Source: Kiritimatiellia bacterium
GTDB lineage: Bacteria; Verrucomicrobiota; Kiritimatiellia; RFP12; UBA1067
Reading direction: 5' to 3'
NCBI GenBank assembly: GCA_017544725.1
Contig: JAFYDR010000317.1
Location: forward strand, 1-57,437
DNA length: 57,437 nucleotides
Shown here: positions 12,256 through 38,464 of the stretch, one piece after another
Layout of the letters: each line of letters starts with the position of its first letter
Position numbering within the stretch: the first letter of the stretch is position 1
Position numbers and translations under genes: made by a program
The notes under the pieces: model-generated
What the model was told of the DNA's origin: nothing
Seen by the model: the letters and a program-made list of their open reading frames with translations, nothing else
Databases searched by the model: none

Positions 12256-12360
12256 AATCAACCCCCTTTGCGCGAAACCTACAGTCACATGAAACAATGA
12301 ATAGATTATACAACATTATTTTTCATAAGTCAATCAAGAGATACAAAAAAGTTTCATGTG

Positions 12361-12898
12361 GGGTGCATCTGCGTATTTCACCGTCGTCTTTTGAAAGTGA
12401 AACAACAGAAACAATAACTTCGCTACGCGAAGTAGTGACGAGTGACGAATGACGAGTGACAGGCGGCGAAGCCGCCAGCTGAGAAGCCGAGGTACTTCGC
12501 ATAGTGACGAGTGAAAAGTGACGAGGAATTTCGCCACTCCTGTTAGTCCCGTCGGTCTCGCTAGTCCCGTGCGGTGGGCGCGGCACTTAGCCGAAGGGCA
12601 CTTAGCCACGCAGTGGCACTTAGTCCCGCAGGGATACTTAACCTAAAGCGGCACTTGCCACTTTCCCAACTACCGAACCACCCAACCACCGAAGCGTGAG
12701 CACCACGCCCGCGCCCGAATAGTCCGTCCCATAAAGGTTACGGGACAATAATACCAAATGATTGTCGCGGTAAAGGCAAAGGAGAGATGATGCACGGACC
12801 GGTTGGTCCGCGCACCTCTTTCAGTTGTTGTCTTCAAGTTGTTCTGGTTGTTTCCAAAATCCTCTCGTGCGTACGGAATGGGTAACGCTGATGCGTCC
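12361..12898. mobile_element. Expanded MITE-like mosaic element (538 bp)
   Basis: Left end GGGTGCATCTGCGTATTTCACC, degenerate right end ...GATGCGTCC; subterminal arms match 21811 and 44661; interior filled with repeat modules. Confidence 0.75.
12585..12656 (+). repeat. ACTTA-spaced GNA mini-hairpin array
   Basis: ACTTA-GCCGAAGGGC-ACTTA-GCCACGCAGTGGC-ACTTA-GTCCCGCAGGGAT-ACTTA. Confidence 0.8.
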
Positions 12899-12966
12899 TC
12901 TTAATTCTTCTCAGCCTCTCAGCTTCCCCGCTGGCGGCTCAGCCGCTTACTGCCTAACGCCTATTC

Positions 12967-33213: not shown

Positions 33214-33876
33214 ATGCTGATTGACGAGATAAGGAGTGGAGAGACAGACACGCTTGAGTTCAAGCGTGATGTGCCGTCGGATAAGTCGCTAGCACTGGCG
33301 TTCAAATACATGAATTTCATCGAAGAATGGGGAAGCGGAATACCACGCATACAGGAGATGCTTTCTAAGGCAGGTTTGCCGCCATTGCATATTGAGAATA
33401 GCGGCATGGACATTCGGTTTACGGTTTGGCGAAATCCTGTTAAACGAGCGATTTCTTCGGAAGTTGCCCAGAGAGGCGCGAAAGTTGCCCCGATCAACAG
33501 ACAAGTTGCCCCGAAACCGGCGGAAGTTGCCCAGAGAGGCGCGAAAGTTGCCCCGATCAACAGACAAGTTGCCCCGAAATCGGCGGAAGTTGCCCAGAGA
33601 GGCGCGAAAGTTGCCCCGATCAACAGACAAGTTGCCCCGAAATCAACGGAAGTTGCCCAGAGGCTCAGTGGTAAGGGGCGGGCAGATGCGGTAAGGAATG
33701 CGGTTGCTGTCTTCGAGTGTCTAATGGCAAATAGTGAAGTTTCTGTCCCGAATATCGAAAGTAAAACACATCTTTCGAATGGTTCGGTTAAAAATGCGAT
33801 TCGTTTGTTGCGGCAGAACGGGATCATCAAGCGTGACGGTTCCAACCGTAGCGGAAGATGGGTGGTTTTGGTGTGA
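33214..33876 (+). CDS. Internally deleted AlbA_2(Schlafen)/HATPase_c_4/winged-HTH protein with tandem repeats
   Basis: N-terminal GETDTLEFKR (AlbA_2 start) joined directly to FKYMNFIEEWGSGIPRI (HATPase_c_4 end), then repeats, then an HTH ending IKRDGSNRSGRWVV. Confidence 0.7.
   Translation: MLIDEIRSGETDTLEFKRDVPSDKSLALAFKYMNFIEEWGSGIPRIQEMLSKAGLPPLHIENSGMDIRFTVWRNPVKRAISSEVAQRGAKVAPINRQVAPKPAEVAQRGAKVAPINRQVAPKSAEVAQRGAKVAPINRQVAPKSTEVAQRLSGKGRADAVRNAVAVFECLMANSEVSVPNIESKTHLSNGSVKNAIRLLRQNGIIKRDGSNRSGRWVVLV
33458..33662 (+). repeat. Intragenic tandem repeat: 63-bp unit built from 21-bp subunits
   Basis: AAGTTGCCC recurs every 21 bp (10 copies, 33461-33650); about 3.2 copies of EVAQRGAKVAPINRQVAPK(P/S)(A/T). 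Confidence 0.95.
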
Positions 33877-33883
33877 ACGAGGA

Positions 33884-34891
33884 ATGGAGCAGAATCTCAA
33901 ACTGATGAGTGCGACGGAACGGAAATCTGGAGGTTATGACTATACACGCGGAGGATCGATGTTCGTGACGATCCGTCTCGAACCTCGGCGTCCGTTGTTT
34001 GGTCATGTGGATCACGATCATGTGGTGCTTTCTGAAGCGGGAGAGATCGTGAAGCGTGACCTGCTGGAGTCAGCTGGACGTTTCAAGGGGTTCATCACGC
34101 TCCGCGCCTGGACAATCATGCCGGACCATGTGCATCTCCGCTTCACATGGCCGTCGGGCAACACCGACGCCGAGAAGATGATCGGCTCATTCATTGGTCG
34201 GTTCAAGCAGTATTCGAAACATCATATCTCTTGGCACAGGGATGGCATTTGGGAAGAAGGTTACCACAGTTTGATCTGCGCGGCGGAACGCTTGAACCGT
34301 ACTGTCGATGCCTACATCCTCAACAATCCCCGCAAGCGTTCTCTCCTACACAGTGATCCGTCATTGATGCGCGTAGTCGAACCGTTCCCGTTACTTGAGG
34401 ACGGTGGCCACGATCTGTGGCGGGCAGTTGGGAATACCGACCTGTTGAAGCGTGACCGTATTGTCTCGCTCCGTATTTCGCGGAAGGTCTCGCTGGATGC
34501 GCTGCCGCAGATTGTCGAAACATGCCGACGTGATGTCGTAGAGAATGGTTATCCGGTTGCCTCTACCTTCTTCTCGCCCGGCGAAAGAATGGTATTCAAG
34601 GCGTTGGCGGAAGAGAAGGATTTGCCGATAATCCGATTGTTGCCCACGTTTACGGAGTTGGCGTATCGGCCGCACGGGTTGGAACCTTCGCTCTTCGCGG
34701 AAAAGCGGTTGCTGATACTTTCGCGCATGGTCGATCCGGCCGCACCGACAATGCCCGGAGAACTGGTGAGGTTGAATTTCATCGCCGCAAATATCGCTCG
34801 GGCGAGAGAGGGCGGACGAACCGTGTATGTTACGATCCCGGGAAAGGATCGCACCCAAATTGTTTACGAGGAGCATCCGATGTCCCCATAG
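33884..34891 (+). CDS. RAYT/TnpA(REP)-like HUH Y1 nuclease fused to a probable DprA/SLOG-like domain
   Basis: GYDYTRGGSMFVTI, MPDHVHL (HUH), IGRFK, WEEGYH...YILNNP (catalytic Tyr); extra ~150-aa alpha/beta domain (GNTDLL, ISRK, STFFSPGE, RLLILS). Confidence 0.8.
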   Translation: MEQNLKLMSATERKSGGYDYTRGGSMFVTIRLEPRRPLFGHVDHDHVVLSEAGEIVKRDLLESAGRFKGFITLRAWTIMPDHVHLRFTWPSGNTDAEKMIGSFIGRFKQYSKHHISWHRDGIWEEGYHSLICAAERLNRTVDAYILNNPRKRSLLHSDPSLMRVVEPFPLLEDGGHDLWRAVGNTDLLKRDRIVSLRISRKVSLDALPQIVETCRRDVVENGYPVASTFFSPGERMVFKALAEEKDLPIIRLLPTFTELAYRPHGLEPSLFAEKRLLILSRMVDPAAPTMPGELVRLNFIAANIARAREGGRTVYVTIPGKDRTQIVYEEHPMSP

Positions 34892-34900
34892 CCGCTATTA

Positions 34901-35067
34901 GTCGCCGCTGCACGGCTTTAAGTGAGCTACGGTCATAAGTCGGGCTTCACCCGTAAGTTGGGATTCGTCCCTTAAGCCCACTTAGTCACGAAGCGACACT
35001 TAGCTACGAAGTAGCACTTAGCCCGTAGGGCACTTAACAACGCAGTGGTACTTAATTCCGTAGGGAT
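34901..35067. repeat. Inverted array of ACTTA-spaced C-GNA-G mini-hairpins (REP-like)
   Basis: About four units with TAAGT spacers, then five units with ACTTA spacers at 34980, 34998, 35016, 35032 and 35050. Confidence 0.85.
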
Positions 35068-35084
35068 AATGATGGAGTGATTAC

Positions 35085-36170
35085 ATGAAAACCGAAAAGA
35101 ATGAGGAAGCGAGGCGCGAGATCGAGGAGATCGATCGGCAAATCGCAGAACTGAAGAAAAGGCGAAAGGCGCTTTCTGCCGAACTCGGTACAGGACGCCT
35201 TTCGTGGGGTGCGATTATCGCCGGCGGATTCGGTGCGCTGATGATCGGATTGGGCATCATCGCGCTCTTCGCGGCAAACTGGAGTGAATTCGGTCGTGCC
35301 GCACGTGCGGCAATCGCGATTTCGCCGGTTGCCATCTGTGGATGTCTCGCGATCTTCGCCCACACGAAGGGATGGAAGTCGCGCGCGTTCTGGGAACCGC
35401 TGGGCATCCTTTGGTGTGTCTCGATCGGGGCGGCGACATGTCTGGTCGCTCAGACGTACCAAGTCGGCGGCAACGTACCCGGACTAATCCTCCTAGTTGC
35501 GCTACTGATGATTCCGGTAATCTGGACGACGCGAGCCGTGGTGCCAACCGTACTTTGGCCGATCTTTGCAGTCGTCTGGGGAACTTCGAAACTTGATTAC
35601 AGCGGAATGAAGTCGATCTCGCTCGCCGTGAAGTCTATCATTCTGATGTCGCTCTCGCTCCCCTTCTATATCGCGTTCCTGCGCAGTCGTCCGCCGAAAG
35701 CCGCACTGGTATCGGCGCAATTCGGAACGGGACTCATCTACTCGATCGGGCTGGCCATCCTCCTGATGACTACCATAGATCTTGACCACAGCGAATCGAT
35801 TGTTGTCTGTATCTTCTGGGCATGCGCGGGATTGGTCGCGCTGGCGGGCTGGTTTTTCTCGCTTCCGGTCTGGGGATCGGTCGGCATCCTCGTCGCGGCG
35901 ACCACGGCGTTCTCGACACCTTTCCTGAGAGAAAACACGACATACCTTGCCTCGCTGGTACTGGCGTGTACAATCATCGCGCTCAGCATCCGCAAAATGC
36001 AACTTTTCCTCACGAATGTAGGTGCTGTAACACTCCTTTGGCTGGTGTTGGCGAAATTCTTCATGAGTCACGTTTCATTCACGACCAAGGGAATCGTACT
36101 GATCATTGCGGGGTTGGCACTCACGGCGCTCAACGTGGTTCTCATCCGTCTGCGCAAAGGGAGGAGCTAA
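35085..36170 (+). CDS. DUF2157-like integral membrane protein
   Basis: GALMIGLGIIALFAANW, LVAQTYQ, about 10 TM helices; adjacent to a GDYXXLXY-type gene. Confidence 0.75.
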   Translation: MKTEKNEEARREIEEIDRQIAELKKRRKALSAELGTGRLSWGAIIAGGFGALMIGLGIIALFAANWSEFGRAARAAIAISPVAICGCLAIFAHTKGWKSRAFWEPLGILWCVSIGAATCLVAQTYQVGGNVPGLILLVALLMIPVIWTTRAVVPTVLWPIFAVVWGTSKLDYSGMKSISLAVKSIILMSLSLPFYIAFLRSRPPKAALVSAQFGTGLIYSIGLAILLMTTIDLDHSESIVVCIFWACAGLVALAGWFFSLPVWGSVGILVAATTAFSTPFLRENTTYLASLVLACTIIALSIRKMQLFLTNVGAVTLLWLVLAKFFMSHVSFTTKGIVLIIAGLALTALNVVLIRLRKGRS

Positions 36171-36172
36171 TC

Positions 36173-36835
36173 ATGATGACGAACACGAAGAAAGCGATTC
36201 TGGCGGTTGCGGCGCTCGCCATACAGTGCGTGTGTATCGGCTGGCTCATCTGGCGTTACGAGCAGGTCGTCCGTCACGGAACCGAAGTGCGTTTCCGGTG
36301 TGAGGCATACGACCCGTATGACCCGCTTCGTGGACGTTACCTCCGCACGACTGTGCGCGAGAGTTGCACGAACCTCCTCATCGAAGGCGAGGTGAAAGAA
36401 AGCTGGCGAAGGCGTGCGCTTTACGCGAAACTGGAGCAAGGGACGAATGCGCTCTGGCATGTCACAGCAGTTGCCGAAGCACCGCAATCGGACGGCGGCA
36501 TCTGGGTGAAGCGGGAACGTACATCGATCAATCATTTGCTGAACTGGTCTGCTCGAGGTCGAGGAATAGACGAATCGTGGGAGGACTTCGAGAAACGCCG
36601 TAAGGCCTCGCCTCTCGCGGCGCTCGTGGAAATGCCCGACCAACTCTTCGTAAACGAGCGGCTCGCACCGAAAGCCGAAAAGGTATTGCGCGAGGCAACA
36701 TCCGCAAAGGGAAAGGGCGCGGTCGCCGTCTATCGTGTGAAAGACGGCGAGATCGTGATCACCGACATCGAGATCGACGGCGTCTCCGTCGTTGAGAAGG
36801 CAAAGGCTGCCAAGGGCGACAGTGACGAGGAATGA
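36173..36835 (+). CDS. GDYXXLXY domain-containing membrane-anchored protein
   Basis: N-terminal TM helix followed by GTEVRF...YDPYDPLRGRYL. Confidence 0.75.
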   Translation: MMTNTKKAILAVAALAIQCVCIGWLIWRYEQVVRHGTEVRFRCEAYDPYDPLRGRYLRTTVRESCTNLLIEGEVKESWRRRALYAKLEQGTNALWHVTAVAEAPQSDGGIWVKRERTSINHLLNWSARGRGIDESWEDFEKRRKASPLAALVEMPDQLFVNERLAPKAEKVLREATSAKGKGAVAVYRVKDGEIVITDIEIDGVSVVEKAKAAKGDSDEE

Positions 36836-36840
36836 GTTAC

Positions 36841-36900
36841 GTCGCCGCTGCTCGGCTCTAAGTGACCTACGGTCATCAGTCGGGCTTCGCCCCTTAAGTT
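36841..36900. repeat. Partial copy of the TAAGT/GNA-hairpin array
   Basis: GTCGCCGCTGCTCGGCTCTAAGTGACCTACGGTCATCAGTCGGGCTTCGCCCTTAAGTT closely matches 34901-34959. Confidence 0.8.
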
Positions 36901-36949
36901 GCGAAACGACCACGAATCGGAGAACTGTTTTGAAAAAGGAGAGAATCGT

Positions 36950-38464
36950 ATGAAGAGATTAGGTATGTTATCGTGCGCCGCCGTGCTGGCTCTGGCTGGC
37001 AATGGTTTTGCGTTGTTGGAAAAATCAACGCCGGAGGCGGAGGGAATTTCCTCGTCCGCAATCGACGCTTGGATCACCGCTTGTGAAAAGGAATTGGATG
37101 CCGTCCACGGTTTTGTGCTACTGCGACACGGAAAGACGATTGCAGAAGGCTGGTGGAAGCCTTTCTCCGCTGACCGGACACACATCCTCTATTCCCATTC
37201 CAAAAGCTTCACCTCCACCGCAATCGGTTTCCTGATTGACGACGGAAAGCTCGACCTCGATGAATGTCTGGTGGACATCTTTCCCGACCGGCTTCCGGAA
37301 AACCCGCCGGATAACCTCAAGCGGCTTCGTGTCCGCGATCTTTTGACGATGAACACCGGTATGCCCTATACCGACGCGGAACGGAAGGACATCGGCGGGG
37401 ATTGGGTCAACCTCTTTCTGGCGAACCCGGTGGAGGATCGTCCAGGAACCCGCTTCCGCTACGACTCCTGCGCGACGCATGTCCTCGCCGCAATCGTCGA
37501 AAAACGGAGTGGGAAGAAGCTGATGGATTTCCTGAAGGAAAGGCTCTTCGATCCGATCGGTATCACGAAGGCGTGGTCGAACTGCAGCCCAACAGGAATC
37601 GCCTGTGGTGGTTGGGGCATGAGCATGACGACTCGCGAACTGGCACGTTTCGGTCAACTCTACTTGCAGGAAGGTATGTGGGACGGGACCCGTATCCTCT
37701 CGCGTGAGTGGGTACGACTGGCGACCTCGCGCCAAACCTACAACGGTGGTAAGATCGGCGTAAAGCAGATCAACGATAGTGATTGGGCGCAGGGATACGG
37801 CTTCCAGTTCTGGCGTTGTCGTTTCAACTGCTTCCGCGCCGACGGAGCGAGCGGACAGCTGACGGTCGTGATGCCCGACCAAGATGCTGTCCTGTCGGTT
37901 CATGCCGGACTCGGTCCGATGCAGAAGGAACTGGACTTGATTTGGAAGCACCTGTTGCCTGCCTTCCAAAACGCACCGTTGCCCGCAAACCCCGATGCGG
38001 CAAATGCACTGGCGGCGCGTTGCGCGGCACTCTCGCTCAAAAAAATCGACGGCAAAAAGGAAGGAACTGAAACGATCTTCGGGCGCACATTCGCGTTGGA
38101 GGGAAATCAGCCGCGTTTCCACTTCACGAGTGTCCGTTTGGAGAAACAGGAAAACGGCTGGGAGATGATCACCACTGGTGCCACTGGAGAACAACACTTC
38201 CCGATTGGTTTTGGAGAATGGCGCGAAGGCAAGGTTAAACTGGAGAACGCGACCTTCGAAGGACTGGGTGCCCTCATCGGCGAACAGTCTGTCGCCTCCT
38301 CCGGCGCATGGACAGCCCCCGACACCTTCCGCGTGCGGACGTACCTGAACGACGGTTTCTTCCGCCTCGACGCGACCTTCCAGTTCGCGAACGACGGCAA
38401 CCTTTCCCTCTCCTACAACCTAACCGGATGGGGAGACGGCCGTACGAACCTAAAGGGAAAATGA
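36950..38464 (+). CDS. Secreted serine hydrolase, class C beta-lactamase-like fold
   Basis: Signal peptide; SHSK (SxxK), LLTM, FRYDS, ELARFGQLYL, GYGFQFW. Confidence 0.88.
   Translation: MKRLGMLSCAAVLALAGNGFALLEKSTPEAEGISSSAIDAWITACEKELDAVHGFVLLRHGKTIAEGWWKPFSADRTHILYSHSKSFTSTAIGFLIDDGKLDLDECLVDIFPDRLPENPPDNLKRLRVRDLLTMNTGMPYTDAERKDIGGDWVNLFLANPVEDRPGTRFRYDSCATHVLAAIVEKRSGKKLMDFLKERLFDPIGITKAWSNCSPTGIACGGWGMSMTTRELARFGQLYLQEGMWDGTRILSREWVRLATSRQTYNGGKIGVKQINDSDWAQGYGFQFWRCRFNCFRADGASGQLTVVMPDQDAVLSVHAGLGPMQKELDLIWKHLLPAFQNAPLPANPDAANALAARCAALSLKKIDGKKEGTETIFGRTFALEGNQPRFHFTSVRLEKQENGWEMITTGATGEQHFPIGFGEWREGKVKLENATFEGLGALIGEQSVASSGAWTAPDTFRVRTYLNDGFFRLDATFQFANDGNLSLSYNLTGWGDGRTNLKGK

Follow-up and report, generated by a model that had tools for sequence, protein, structure and literature searches.

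When a gene for a RAYT-like nuclease lies directly upstream of an array of small DNA hairpins, do the two belong together? The question is raised by a locus in contig JAFYDR010000317.1 of a Kiritimatiellia bacterium, the 57,437 nucleotides of which are called the window in the following. A gene for a HUH/Y1 nuclease of the type of the REP-associated tyrosine transposases (RAYT; REP stands for repetitive extragenic palindromic sequence) is followed there by a double array of mini-hairpins that are linked by the word ACTTA, and a first-pass annotation took gene and arrays for a RAYT-REP pair. The comparison across genomes argues against such a pair, and we favour with moderate confidence the reading that two separate things lie side by side, namely a gene of a RAYT-DprA family and one locus of a lineage-restricted repeat that resembles REPs and bacterial interspersed mosaic elements (BIME). 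Their adjacency in the window is most likely due to chance.

The gene (33884..34891, plus strand, with ATG at 33884 and the stop codon at 34889-34891) encodes a protein of 335 aa, and its description as a RAYT-like HUH/Y1 nuclease with a DprA-like domain draws on the open reading frame (ORF), on profile scores and on an AlphaFold2 model (predicted local distance difference test, pLDDT, 88.2; predicted template modelling score, pTM, 0.79). Residues 1-162 (33884..34369, plus strand) form the HUH/Y1 catalytic domain, in which the HUH motif is encoded at 34127-34135 and a catalytic-type tyrosine, Tyr144, at 34313-34315. All Y1/RAYT motifs quoted in the first-pass annotation are present in the protein, which are GYDY..MFVTI, HVH (H82/H84), W..GYH and YILNNP (Y144). 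Among 60 aligned homologues, both histidines of the HUH motif H82-V-H84 are invariant, and in the YxxxNP helix (Y144-I-L-N-N148-P) Y144 and N148 are at least 90% conserved. A residue that is nearly invariant in the family, D129, is a serine in the window protein; it lies within the W..GYH segment, which by our reading of the alignment seems to match the guide-binding region of TnpA-REP. The protein scores above threshold with Pfam Y1_Tnp (25.2 bits, cut-off 23) and under the cut-off with NCBIfam REP_Tyr_transpos (49.6 bits, cut-off 80). For the N-terminal half, the first-ranking Foldseek match is E. coli TnpA-REP with a bound REP hairpin (4er8, E 1e-6), to which the VIA Z is 14.0 over 137 aligned residues, and structures of IS608 and ISDra2 TnpA give VIA Z of 10-12.5 for the HUH/Y1 domain. 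A homologue search led to 102 clusters, the few named ones of which are called Kiritimatiellae transposase or RayT. Motifs and model together support the window protein as a putative RAYT-like HUH/Y1 enzyme with conserved catalytic residues.

The remaining residues 163-335 (34370..34888, plus strand) had been suspected to be a DprA/SLOG-like domain, and conservation, profile and structure comparison agree with this. Conserved in this half are R197, S199, S231-P232-G233-E234, Y261, R275, R291 and N298, with S231-P-G-E234 being invariant among the 60 homologues. Over residues 159/163-335, the VIA Z is 12.8 to ShosA (8zva), 11.2 to H. pylori DprA (4ljl) and 10.5 to S. pneumoniae DprA (3uqz), and it is 8.9 to 3maj and, weaker, 7.2 to the SLOG protein YpsA. 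The structural alignments with DprA and ShosA cover 147-150 residues with a root-mean-square deviation of 3.4-3.9 A and a sequence identity of 14-17%, and Foldseek matches the domain to 4ljl at E 1e-5. Searched against PDB sequences, the family profile gives weak matches to DprA chains (E 0.029-0.12, with 3uqz at E 0.029), and none of the 60 family members matches the Pfam DprA model (DNA_processg_A) at E <= 0.1. The extra ~170 residues are predicted to take a DprA-like fold of the SLOG superfamily, an assignment that holds at the level of the fold. DprA proteins are known to bind single-stranded DNA (ssDNA) and to load RecA.

The RAYT-DprA fusion is a widespread, multi-copy family of the Kiritimatiellae; no description of such a fusion was found in the literature searched, and likewise none of REPs in Kiritimatiellae. 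Family members are present in 44 of 61 related genomes, and four of them in G000, the genome that holds the window, which is a draft of 3.80 Mb in 366 contigs with 55.6% G+C and 75% completeness; all genomes compared are draft metagenome-assembled genomes (MAGs). The paralogues of the window gene in G000 lie on contigs C236, C249 (396 aa) and C102 and are 23-32% identical. A Pfam Y1_Tnp search of G000 gives three matches, which are the C102 paralogue, the window gene and one weak fragment of 59 codons, and tblastn adds C236 and C249.

The repeat block beside the gene comprises about 150 bp. It starts 27 nt past the stop codon, and not 10 bp as was first stated, with TAAGT words at 34919, 34936 and 34954 and CTTAAG at 34970, followed by five ACTTA words; no hairpin array lies 5' of the gene in the window sequence. 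The right arm (34980..35067, plus strand) consists of five units of ACTTA and hairpin, with ACTTA at 34980, 34998, 35016, 35032 and 35050 and the loops GAA, GAA, GTA, GCA and GTA. Its stems differ and yet mostly pair, as the first-pass annotation had seen: the inserts GCTACGAAGTAGC and GCCCGTAGGGC are perfect, GTCACGAAGCGAC and ACAACGCAGTGGT have one mismatch each, and ATTCCGTAGGGAT has one G-T pair. The left arm (34898..34975, minus strand) contains the three TAAGT words and CTTAAG, has a GTCGCCGCTGCACGGC module before it, and on the minus strand shows GAA, GTA and CGAA loops in the units CGGGT-GAA-GCCCG, a damaged TGACC-GTA-GCTC, and GGGA-CGAA-TCCC. It was rightly described as the same design on the opposite strand, but it is more degraded than that description implied. 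In the window locus, the inserts between the words measure 11-13 nt, and the GAA, GTA and GCA loops are on the strand that bears ACTTA. The module of the left arm occurs once more in the assembly, at 36841-36888 (48 nt, 92% identity), and this belongs to a degenerate second copy, a 60-nt remnant (36841..36905, minus strand) directly past a gene stop at 36835, which has 86% mean column identity with the left module at 34898-34965 in an 85-column alignment.

A contig of sequencing run X2 covers 34556-35189 with 0 differences, and no insertions or deletions of units at the window array occur in the contigs of four sequencing runs; none of the runs listed for the locus is an RNA run. In the X4 strain, which is ~95% identical, the right arm has 8 substitutions, 2 in ACTTA words, 1 that restores a pair and 3 that break pairs, which are too few to judge constraint. 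A DNA fold of the whole locus (ViennaRNA) gave z of only -2.3 and -2.7, with the linkers mainly paired, and Rfam has no family match at the window array or at related loci. A CRISPR-like reading was rejected on account of the geometry, with a palindrome of 11-14 nt as the variable part and no more than 5-7 nt that are constant.

Genome-wide, the ACTTA arrays are a real, dispersed and mostly intergenic REP/BIME-like family. If a chain is defined as successive ACTTA words at 13-21-nt spacing, a scan of G000, which the first-pass annotation had proposed, finds 77 chains of at least 3 words and 156 of at least 2, merging into 119 loci, whereas the other 29 permutations of these five letters, used as control, form 0-6 chains of at least 3. 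As 25 of the 156 arrays are not more than 300 nt away from a contig end, the array counts in G000 are lower bounds. Among 265 inserts, 148 have 13 nt (5 bp and a 3-nt loop) and 71 have 11 nt (4 bp and 3 nt), and 154 show perfect end pairing of at least 4 bp, compared to 45 of 5300 shuffled ones. Across 93 distinct 13-nt units, the three inner stem positions form Watson-Crick pairs in 81-86% of cases, versus 36-46% with shuffled partners; 0 of 2000 shuffles attain the real value, and this covariation shows that the units have the potential to form hairpins. The inner pairs vary in a coordinated way, and the outer G-C and closing C-G pairs are nearly constant. With an outer G-C pair that is almost fixed, the constant part extends to the 7-nt C-ACTTA-G; the word ACTTA is constant as had been claimed, but it is not the sole constant part. 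The earlier idea that structure and foot are conserved and stem sequence is not goes too far in taking the stem sequence as free, as the stems fall into ~10 recurring classes (for example GTCCC 27, GGGC 24, GCCGC 17, GCCC 12, GAGCC 11). The most frequent loops in the G000 inserts are GAA (65), GCA (20) and GTA (15), and the 13-nt units have a closing C-G pair in 124, a G at loop position 1 in 121 and an A at position 3 in 136 of 148 cases, which matches the very stable C-GNA-G type that had been recognized; 14-nt units have GNNA loops. In G000, mini-hairpins of this kind are also found after other words: among 1620 perfect 4-bp hairpins (839 with the mirrored control motif), CACTACT precedes 66, TTTCAAG 33 and ATTTAAA 24, compared to 64 for CACTTAG, and CACTACT, GATTTAA and TTTCAAG linkers carry the same mini-hairpins as CACTTAG, so several linker families share one hairpin design.

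As to their position, 58 of the 77 arrays are mostly outside the pseudo-ORFs that were used for the intergenic test and that cover 90% of G000 (2969 pseudo-genes, 1307 gaps of at least 60 bp). The arrays have no orientation bias to flanking genes, with 24 arrays past a gene 3' end in the same and 32 in the opposite orientation, and they have a strong polarity of their own: a typical locus has a minus-strand arm and then a plus-strand arm, and adjacent arm pairs in G000 are divergent in 27 cases, convergent in 1 and on the same strand in 6. The arrays are often followed by word tails (ACCAGCTTA ACACGCTTA...) and by a GGCGGC-N4-GCCGCC hairpin. In the searches made, the family is restricted to a few ruminant-gut Kiritimatiellae-type genomes. 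Among the matches listed, a class-wide scan of 401 sampled genomes found hairpin-type arrays only in G000 and word arrays in four other genomes; in a scan of one genome per species (GTDB), 13 of 108 loci among the matches listed were hairpin-type as judged by eye and the rest plain tandem repeats, and 11 of these 13 belong to Kiritimatiellae, Lentisphaerae, Verrucomicrobia or uncultured-bacterium MAGs. G149, G278, G377, G397 and G010, from other genera of the class, have at many loci hairpin-free arrays that consist of 8-nt words only, (ACTTAACC/ACTTAACT)n, and that resemble the hairpin-less linker runs described below.

Do gene and arrays go together in other genomes? Beside G000, five genomes bear the arrays, namely G001, which is of the same genus as G000 and 97% complete (57 pattern matches), G439 (39), G441 (17), G442 (26) and G443 (41), whereas G052 and G444 have single matches. 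In none of these five draft genomes was an orthologue of the window protein found: the best match of G001 is 28% identical and that of G442 31%, and G439, G441 and G443 have none at E <= 1e-10. Orthologues do exist in G002, G006, G019 and G027 (65-67% identity) and in the metagenome locus L023 (68%), and these four genomes have 0 ACTTA arrays, the L023 locus having none either. All 5 close orthologues instead carry private tandem arrays of linker and hairpin at the gene, partly in two inverted arms, with a AACCAGGTTGGG-type linker (CAGGTTG/AACCTG) and a CCCC-GCAA/GCGA-GGGG(G) hairpin, and these CAGGTTG-type hairpins are not dispersed above control level in their genomes. The expectation that ACTTA arrays flank the homologues is largely refuted by this. 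Of 20 relatives that are more distant, at least 8 show tandem repeats with a period of 21-45 nt (63 nt in one locus) within 700-900 nt of the gene, counted irrespective of hairpin content. In G000 itself, the hairpins of the CAGGTTG type can be seen at C59:9580-9660 and C62:16520-16640, for example CCTGCGTCCCC-GCGA-GGGGGACGCAGG with CAGGTTG, far from any RAYT-like gene.

The same result is obtained with the whole family. The family profile has 5-16 matches in each of the five other array-bearing genomes (4-16 across all six), and at 43 loci around 40 family genes or fragments in these five, some of them weak matches, no ACTTA chain, even of 2 units, lies within ~1.5 kb. The G000 paralogues C236, C249 and C102, all of which have both domains, are without an ACTTA array within 600 bp, so that such an array lies next to 1 of the 44 family genes known from the six array-bearing genomes. 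Directly past the stop of the C249 paralogue (C249:7052-7200) are the palindromes ATCGGCGATAATATCGCCGAT and GCCGATAACAGAAC...GTTCTGTTGTCGCCGAT, which fit the family habit of private hairpins. Arrays of at least 3 units are found in 40 of the 1307 gaps of at least 60 bp in G000, and ~2.7% of the 2969 pseudo-genes border one; one adjacent gene among the four family genes of G000 is therefore a ~10% event.

How the arrays change can be read at syntenic positions in G439, G441, G442 and G443, where a host gene with a CXXCH motif and its paralogue are bracketed by double arrays. Compared to the G439 locus, the loci of G441, G442 and G443 are 91%, 83% and 77% identical, with conserved flanks and with differences in the number and order of units. 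G439 has an extra two-unit block (GGCCC-GGA and GCTGC-GAA) and an extra linker-plus-hairpin block in comparison to G441, and the unit order is GCGCC, GGGCC, ACTGC, GGCCC, GCTGC in G439 and GGCCC, GCGCC, GCTGC, GCCCC, GCTGC in G442. Hairpin-less linker runs, TAAGT-TT-TAAGT-TGT, occur among these arrays. The linker is identical between G000 with its 55.6% G+C and loci of 57-72% G+C (the G439 locus, 57-72%), and the stem repertoires differ. The stem variants represent a limited set of unit types, which undergo duplication, loss and reordering at their loci. The idea that the arrays, which are ~1.9 kb apart, could be the flanks of a mobile element was rejected, as the interval is the conserved CXXCH host gene, syntenic in four genomes with one paralogous locus. 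At L226 (G439:C86, 683-2413, minus strand), the frame of the CXXCH-motif gene runs on into the array without a stop for at least 25 codons (..LSAASQLSGPAGLSAASQLSGPSALS), which means that arrays can be translated as protein tails.

New array loci have been seeded over longer times, as can be seen from G000 and G001. Past the gene ending at 36835, G000 has the 60-nt remnant, whereas G001 has a full double array at this site (C198:32195-32418, L013) with ~7 TAAGT and then 6 ACTTA units, and the two arrays at this intergenic site are unrelated. A second ACTTA array of the window (12585..12640, plus strand) has 4 ACTTA words and the units GCC-GAA-GGGC, GCCAC-GCA-GTGGC and GTCCC-GCA-GGGAT, and the region of G001 that is orthologous to its surroundings at 12353-12963 (826 bp) is a wholly different sequence in which no insertion boundary can be read. 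This surrounding in G000 is a mosaic intergenic region of ~600 bp, which also holds GTGACGA-type heptad words (~12436-12530), a GGCGGC-GAAG-CCGCC hairpin and runs of CCAAC/CCGAA words.

What then speaks for a link between gene and array in the window? The window protein could be the cognate RAYT of the ACTTA arrays, which would read any C-GNA-G mini-hairpin with an ACTTA foot in ssDNA, cut and rejoin at the linker and in this way have spread the arrays, the DprA-like domain loading it on ssDNA. The catalytic residues are intact, the array follows the gene immediately on its 3' side, a neighbouring tandem array is customary in the family (5 of 5 close orthologues, and the tandem repeats at distant relatives), and the HUH/Y1 genes of G000 are few. 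Several observations weigh against pure chance in particular. Only 8 of 348 gaps of 150-250 bp in G000 hold an array of at least 3 units, and the array, 27 nt past the stop, lies where the orthologues carry theirs, which fits better with the gene having its own array; the D129S exchange in the putative guide-binding segment makes a changed specificity conceivable. Genes flanked by arrays are also easily lost from draft MAGs, as the arrays near contig ends and the 75% completeness of G000 indicate, and the G001 contig that is syntenic with 35109-37500 breaks 24 nt into the gene of a DUF2157 membrane protein, the next gene in the window (ATG 35085, 17 nt beyond the right arm), which is just where array and RAYT gene would come. 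In addition, no enzyme co-occurs with the arrays, and no G000 paralogue tracks the arrays phyletically: C249-type orthologues are present in G001 (80%), G439 (69%) and G442 (50-65%), also in the array-free G004 (77%; a genome that is 66% complete), and were not found in G441 and G443, a C102-type orthologue is present only in G442 (46%), and C236-type orthologues were found nowhere in this phyletic test. In spite of this we regard the window protein as rather unlikely to be the cognate enzyme. Arrays abound in the five genomes in which its orthologue was not found and are absent from the four genomes that have it, adjacency is a single case among the family genes of the array-bearing genomes, and the locus was selected for this very adjacency. 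The identical CACTTAG in distant genomes speaks for one conserved reader, which the orthologous group of the window protein is not, and for E. coli TnpA-REP the available text of PMC3479197 describes that hairpin sequence and bulge matter and not structure alone.

The arrays might also have come about without any dedicated nuclease, by replication slippage, unequal recombination and template-switch correction of quasi-palindromes between linkers, and be kept for a role in duplex DNA or RNA (nucleoid-protein sites, terminators, mRNA-end protection), as for REP/BIME. It agrees with this explanation that the clearest difference between close relatives, in which a two-unit block and a linker-plus-hairpin block are duplicated in tandem, is a classic product of slippage, that the arrays stay at fixed loci with conserved flanks, that related genomes have linker runs devoid of hairpins and arrays made purely of the 8-nt word ACTTAACC, and that no co-occurring enzyme is seen. 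Slippage alone explains the tandem duplications and neither the reordering nor the 27:1 polarity, however. The unit order of G439 versus G442 is not an outcome of simple slippage, the ~119 loci in G000 and the different loci occupied in G000 and G001 need a seeding of new sites, and the divergent polarity together with the confinement of GNA to one strand points to a strand-specific process, while the missing orientation bias to transcription (24 same, 32 opposite) speaks against a strand-specific RNA role. On balance, an origin without any nuclease appears doubtful. At the other extreme, each unit of hairpin and CACTTAG could be a minimal peel-and-paste element that is excised as ssDNA by a HUH/Y1-DprA enzyme and re-inserted 3' of any ACTTA, whereby the target would be regenerated and units would pile up head to tail, with a palindromic TAAGT-NN-ACTTA seed as the point from which arrays extend outward on either strand, mini-hairpin shape and linker being recognized and the DprA-like domain holding the strand. 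If true, this would account for the 27:1 divergent polarity, the constant linker, the shuffled order and the hairpin-less linker runs; we put it forward very tentatively and hold it to be improbable.

If, as we prefer, a RAYT-DprA gene and an independent repeat locus are neighbours in the window, the arrays may be pictured as follows. Their design is a CACTTAG linker plus a G+C stem of 4-5 bp, closed by C-G and with a GNA loop, in head-to-tail arms that diverge from a small palindromic centre, TAAGT-NN-ACTTA. The units would form mini-hairpins in ssDNA that is exposed at replication, and the arrays would change where strands are cut and rejoined, or where the template is switched, at the constant linker. 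That this linker does not vary suggests a factor with sequence specificity, which is presumably common to the array-bearing genomes. HUH/Y1-DprA proteins are an obvious candidate class for this, because the Pfam Y1_Tnp search in G000 finds only this family and one weak fragment, and the factor is plausibly one of the 4-16 such enzymes of these genomes, though not demonstrably the product of the window gene. The DprA-like domain would hold the ssDNA.

Upstream of the window gene, an ORF at 33214-33876 stops 8 nt before it and looks like a C-terminal fragment (the end of HATPase_c_4 and a winged helix). It contains a 63-bp coding tandem repeat at 33458-33662 with 3.3 copies, 97% match and a 21-nt sub-period (AAGTTGCCCC...), which encodes repeats of the ..EVAQRGAKVAPINRQVAPK.. 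type.

Common as they are in bacterial genomes, REP-type repeats and RAYT enzymes belong to the features that are understood least. The main value of the locus is a corrective one: a RAYT-like gene next to a hairpin array is no evidence of a pair, and the test across genomes argues here against one. If the arrays are processed as ssDNA, they would be an unusually simple case, with units of 16-20 nt that use the DNA mini-hairpin motif of highest known stability and with a linker that is conserved across very different G+C contents. Gain, loss and reordering of units are visible at syntenic loci, and what such enzymes read, be it shape, foot or sequence, can be tested with short oligonucleotides.

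Among known systems, the HUH/Y1 fold and the catalytic motifs of the window protein are like those of E. coli TnpA-REP (RAYT, YafM; PDB 4ER8). That enzyme reads the foot base-specifically and cleaves at a nearby dinucleotide on either side, with the hairpin sequence mattering as well, and it has an inhibitory tail of ~25 aa, in place of which the window protein has the DprA-like domain (as far as described in the available text of PMC3479197). Like in the REP/BIME 'REPtron' (portrayed in the accessible parts of PMC3479197 and PMC3333891), the ACTTA units are short, G+C-rich intergenic palindromes of high copy number with a constant foot word and composite arrays, but CACTTAG, or CAGGTTG in the case of the orthologues, takes the place of the canonical 5' GT[AG]G at the foot, the units are mini-hairpins of 11-14 nt in head-to-tail arms and not REPs of 20-40 nt in alternating orientation, and a link of gene and array, which are adjacent in 1 of 44 cases, is not supported. 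An array of the dispersed family lies on the 3' side of the window gene only. With the Pseudomonas REPIN-RAYT system (REPIN, REP doublet forming hairpin), as seen in the text available of Bertels and Rainey 2011 (PMC3116915) and of PMC3337134, the arrays share that they are lineage-specific dispersed repeats of two inverted halves and occupy different loci in relatives. Unlike in REPINs, each arm is a tandem array and only the linkers pair; the arms are not complementary, their unit types being different, and no long REPIN hairpin forms. Also unlike there, five of the six array-bearing genomes yielded no RAYT gene in single copy with the repeats at its sides. In the TnpA-Y1 classification (Quentin et al. 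2018, PMC6006769), YILNNP and DHVH of the window protein fit class 2 (YxxxNP), closest to the consensus of subclasses 2.4 and 2.7 as given in Table 1; C-terminal domains are there HTH/Bac_DnaA_C-like (subclass 2.1) or subclass-specific (2.3), and DprA does not appear in the main text. The fold of residues 159/163-335 is like that of DprA/Smf and ShosA (4LJL, 3UQZ, 8ZVA), unlike which it is fused to a nuclease here.

The hairpins themselves have a counterpart in the d(GCGAAGC)/d(GCGNNAGC) mini-hairpin DNA, which is called 'extraordinarily stable' in the portions at hand of PMC13037366 and PMC3201870. Loop and closing pair of the ACTTA units are likewise C-GNA-G, and GTCGC-GAA-GCGAC includes GCGAAGC; the mini-hairpin DNA is a biophysical motif and not a family of genomic elements, and the likeness is one of sequence. 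In IS200/IS605 elements, which occur in near-identical copies, the TnpA has a YxxxQ motif, hairpins are subterminal at either end, and tnpB is often present. Unlike them, the window protein has YxxxNP, there is no tnpB, the paralogues are 23-32% identical, the units are gene-free, and no transposition event was seen. The HUH/Y1 chemistry would nevertheless be like that of IS200/IS605, where, in the account that the text at hand of PMC5027513 gives, a hairpin and a short adjacent word set the cleavage and target sites on one ssDNA strand. The peel and paste of these elements is the closest analogue in mechanism for a gain and loss of units at a constant linker.

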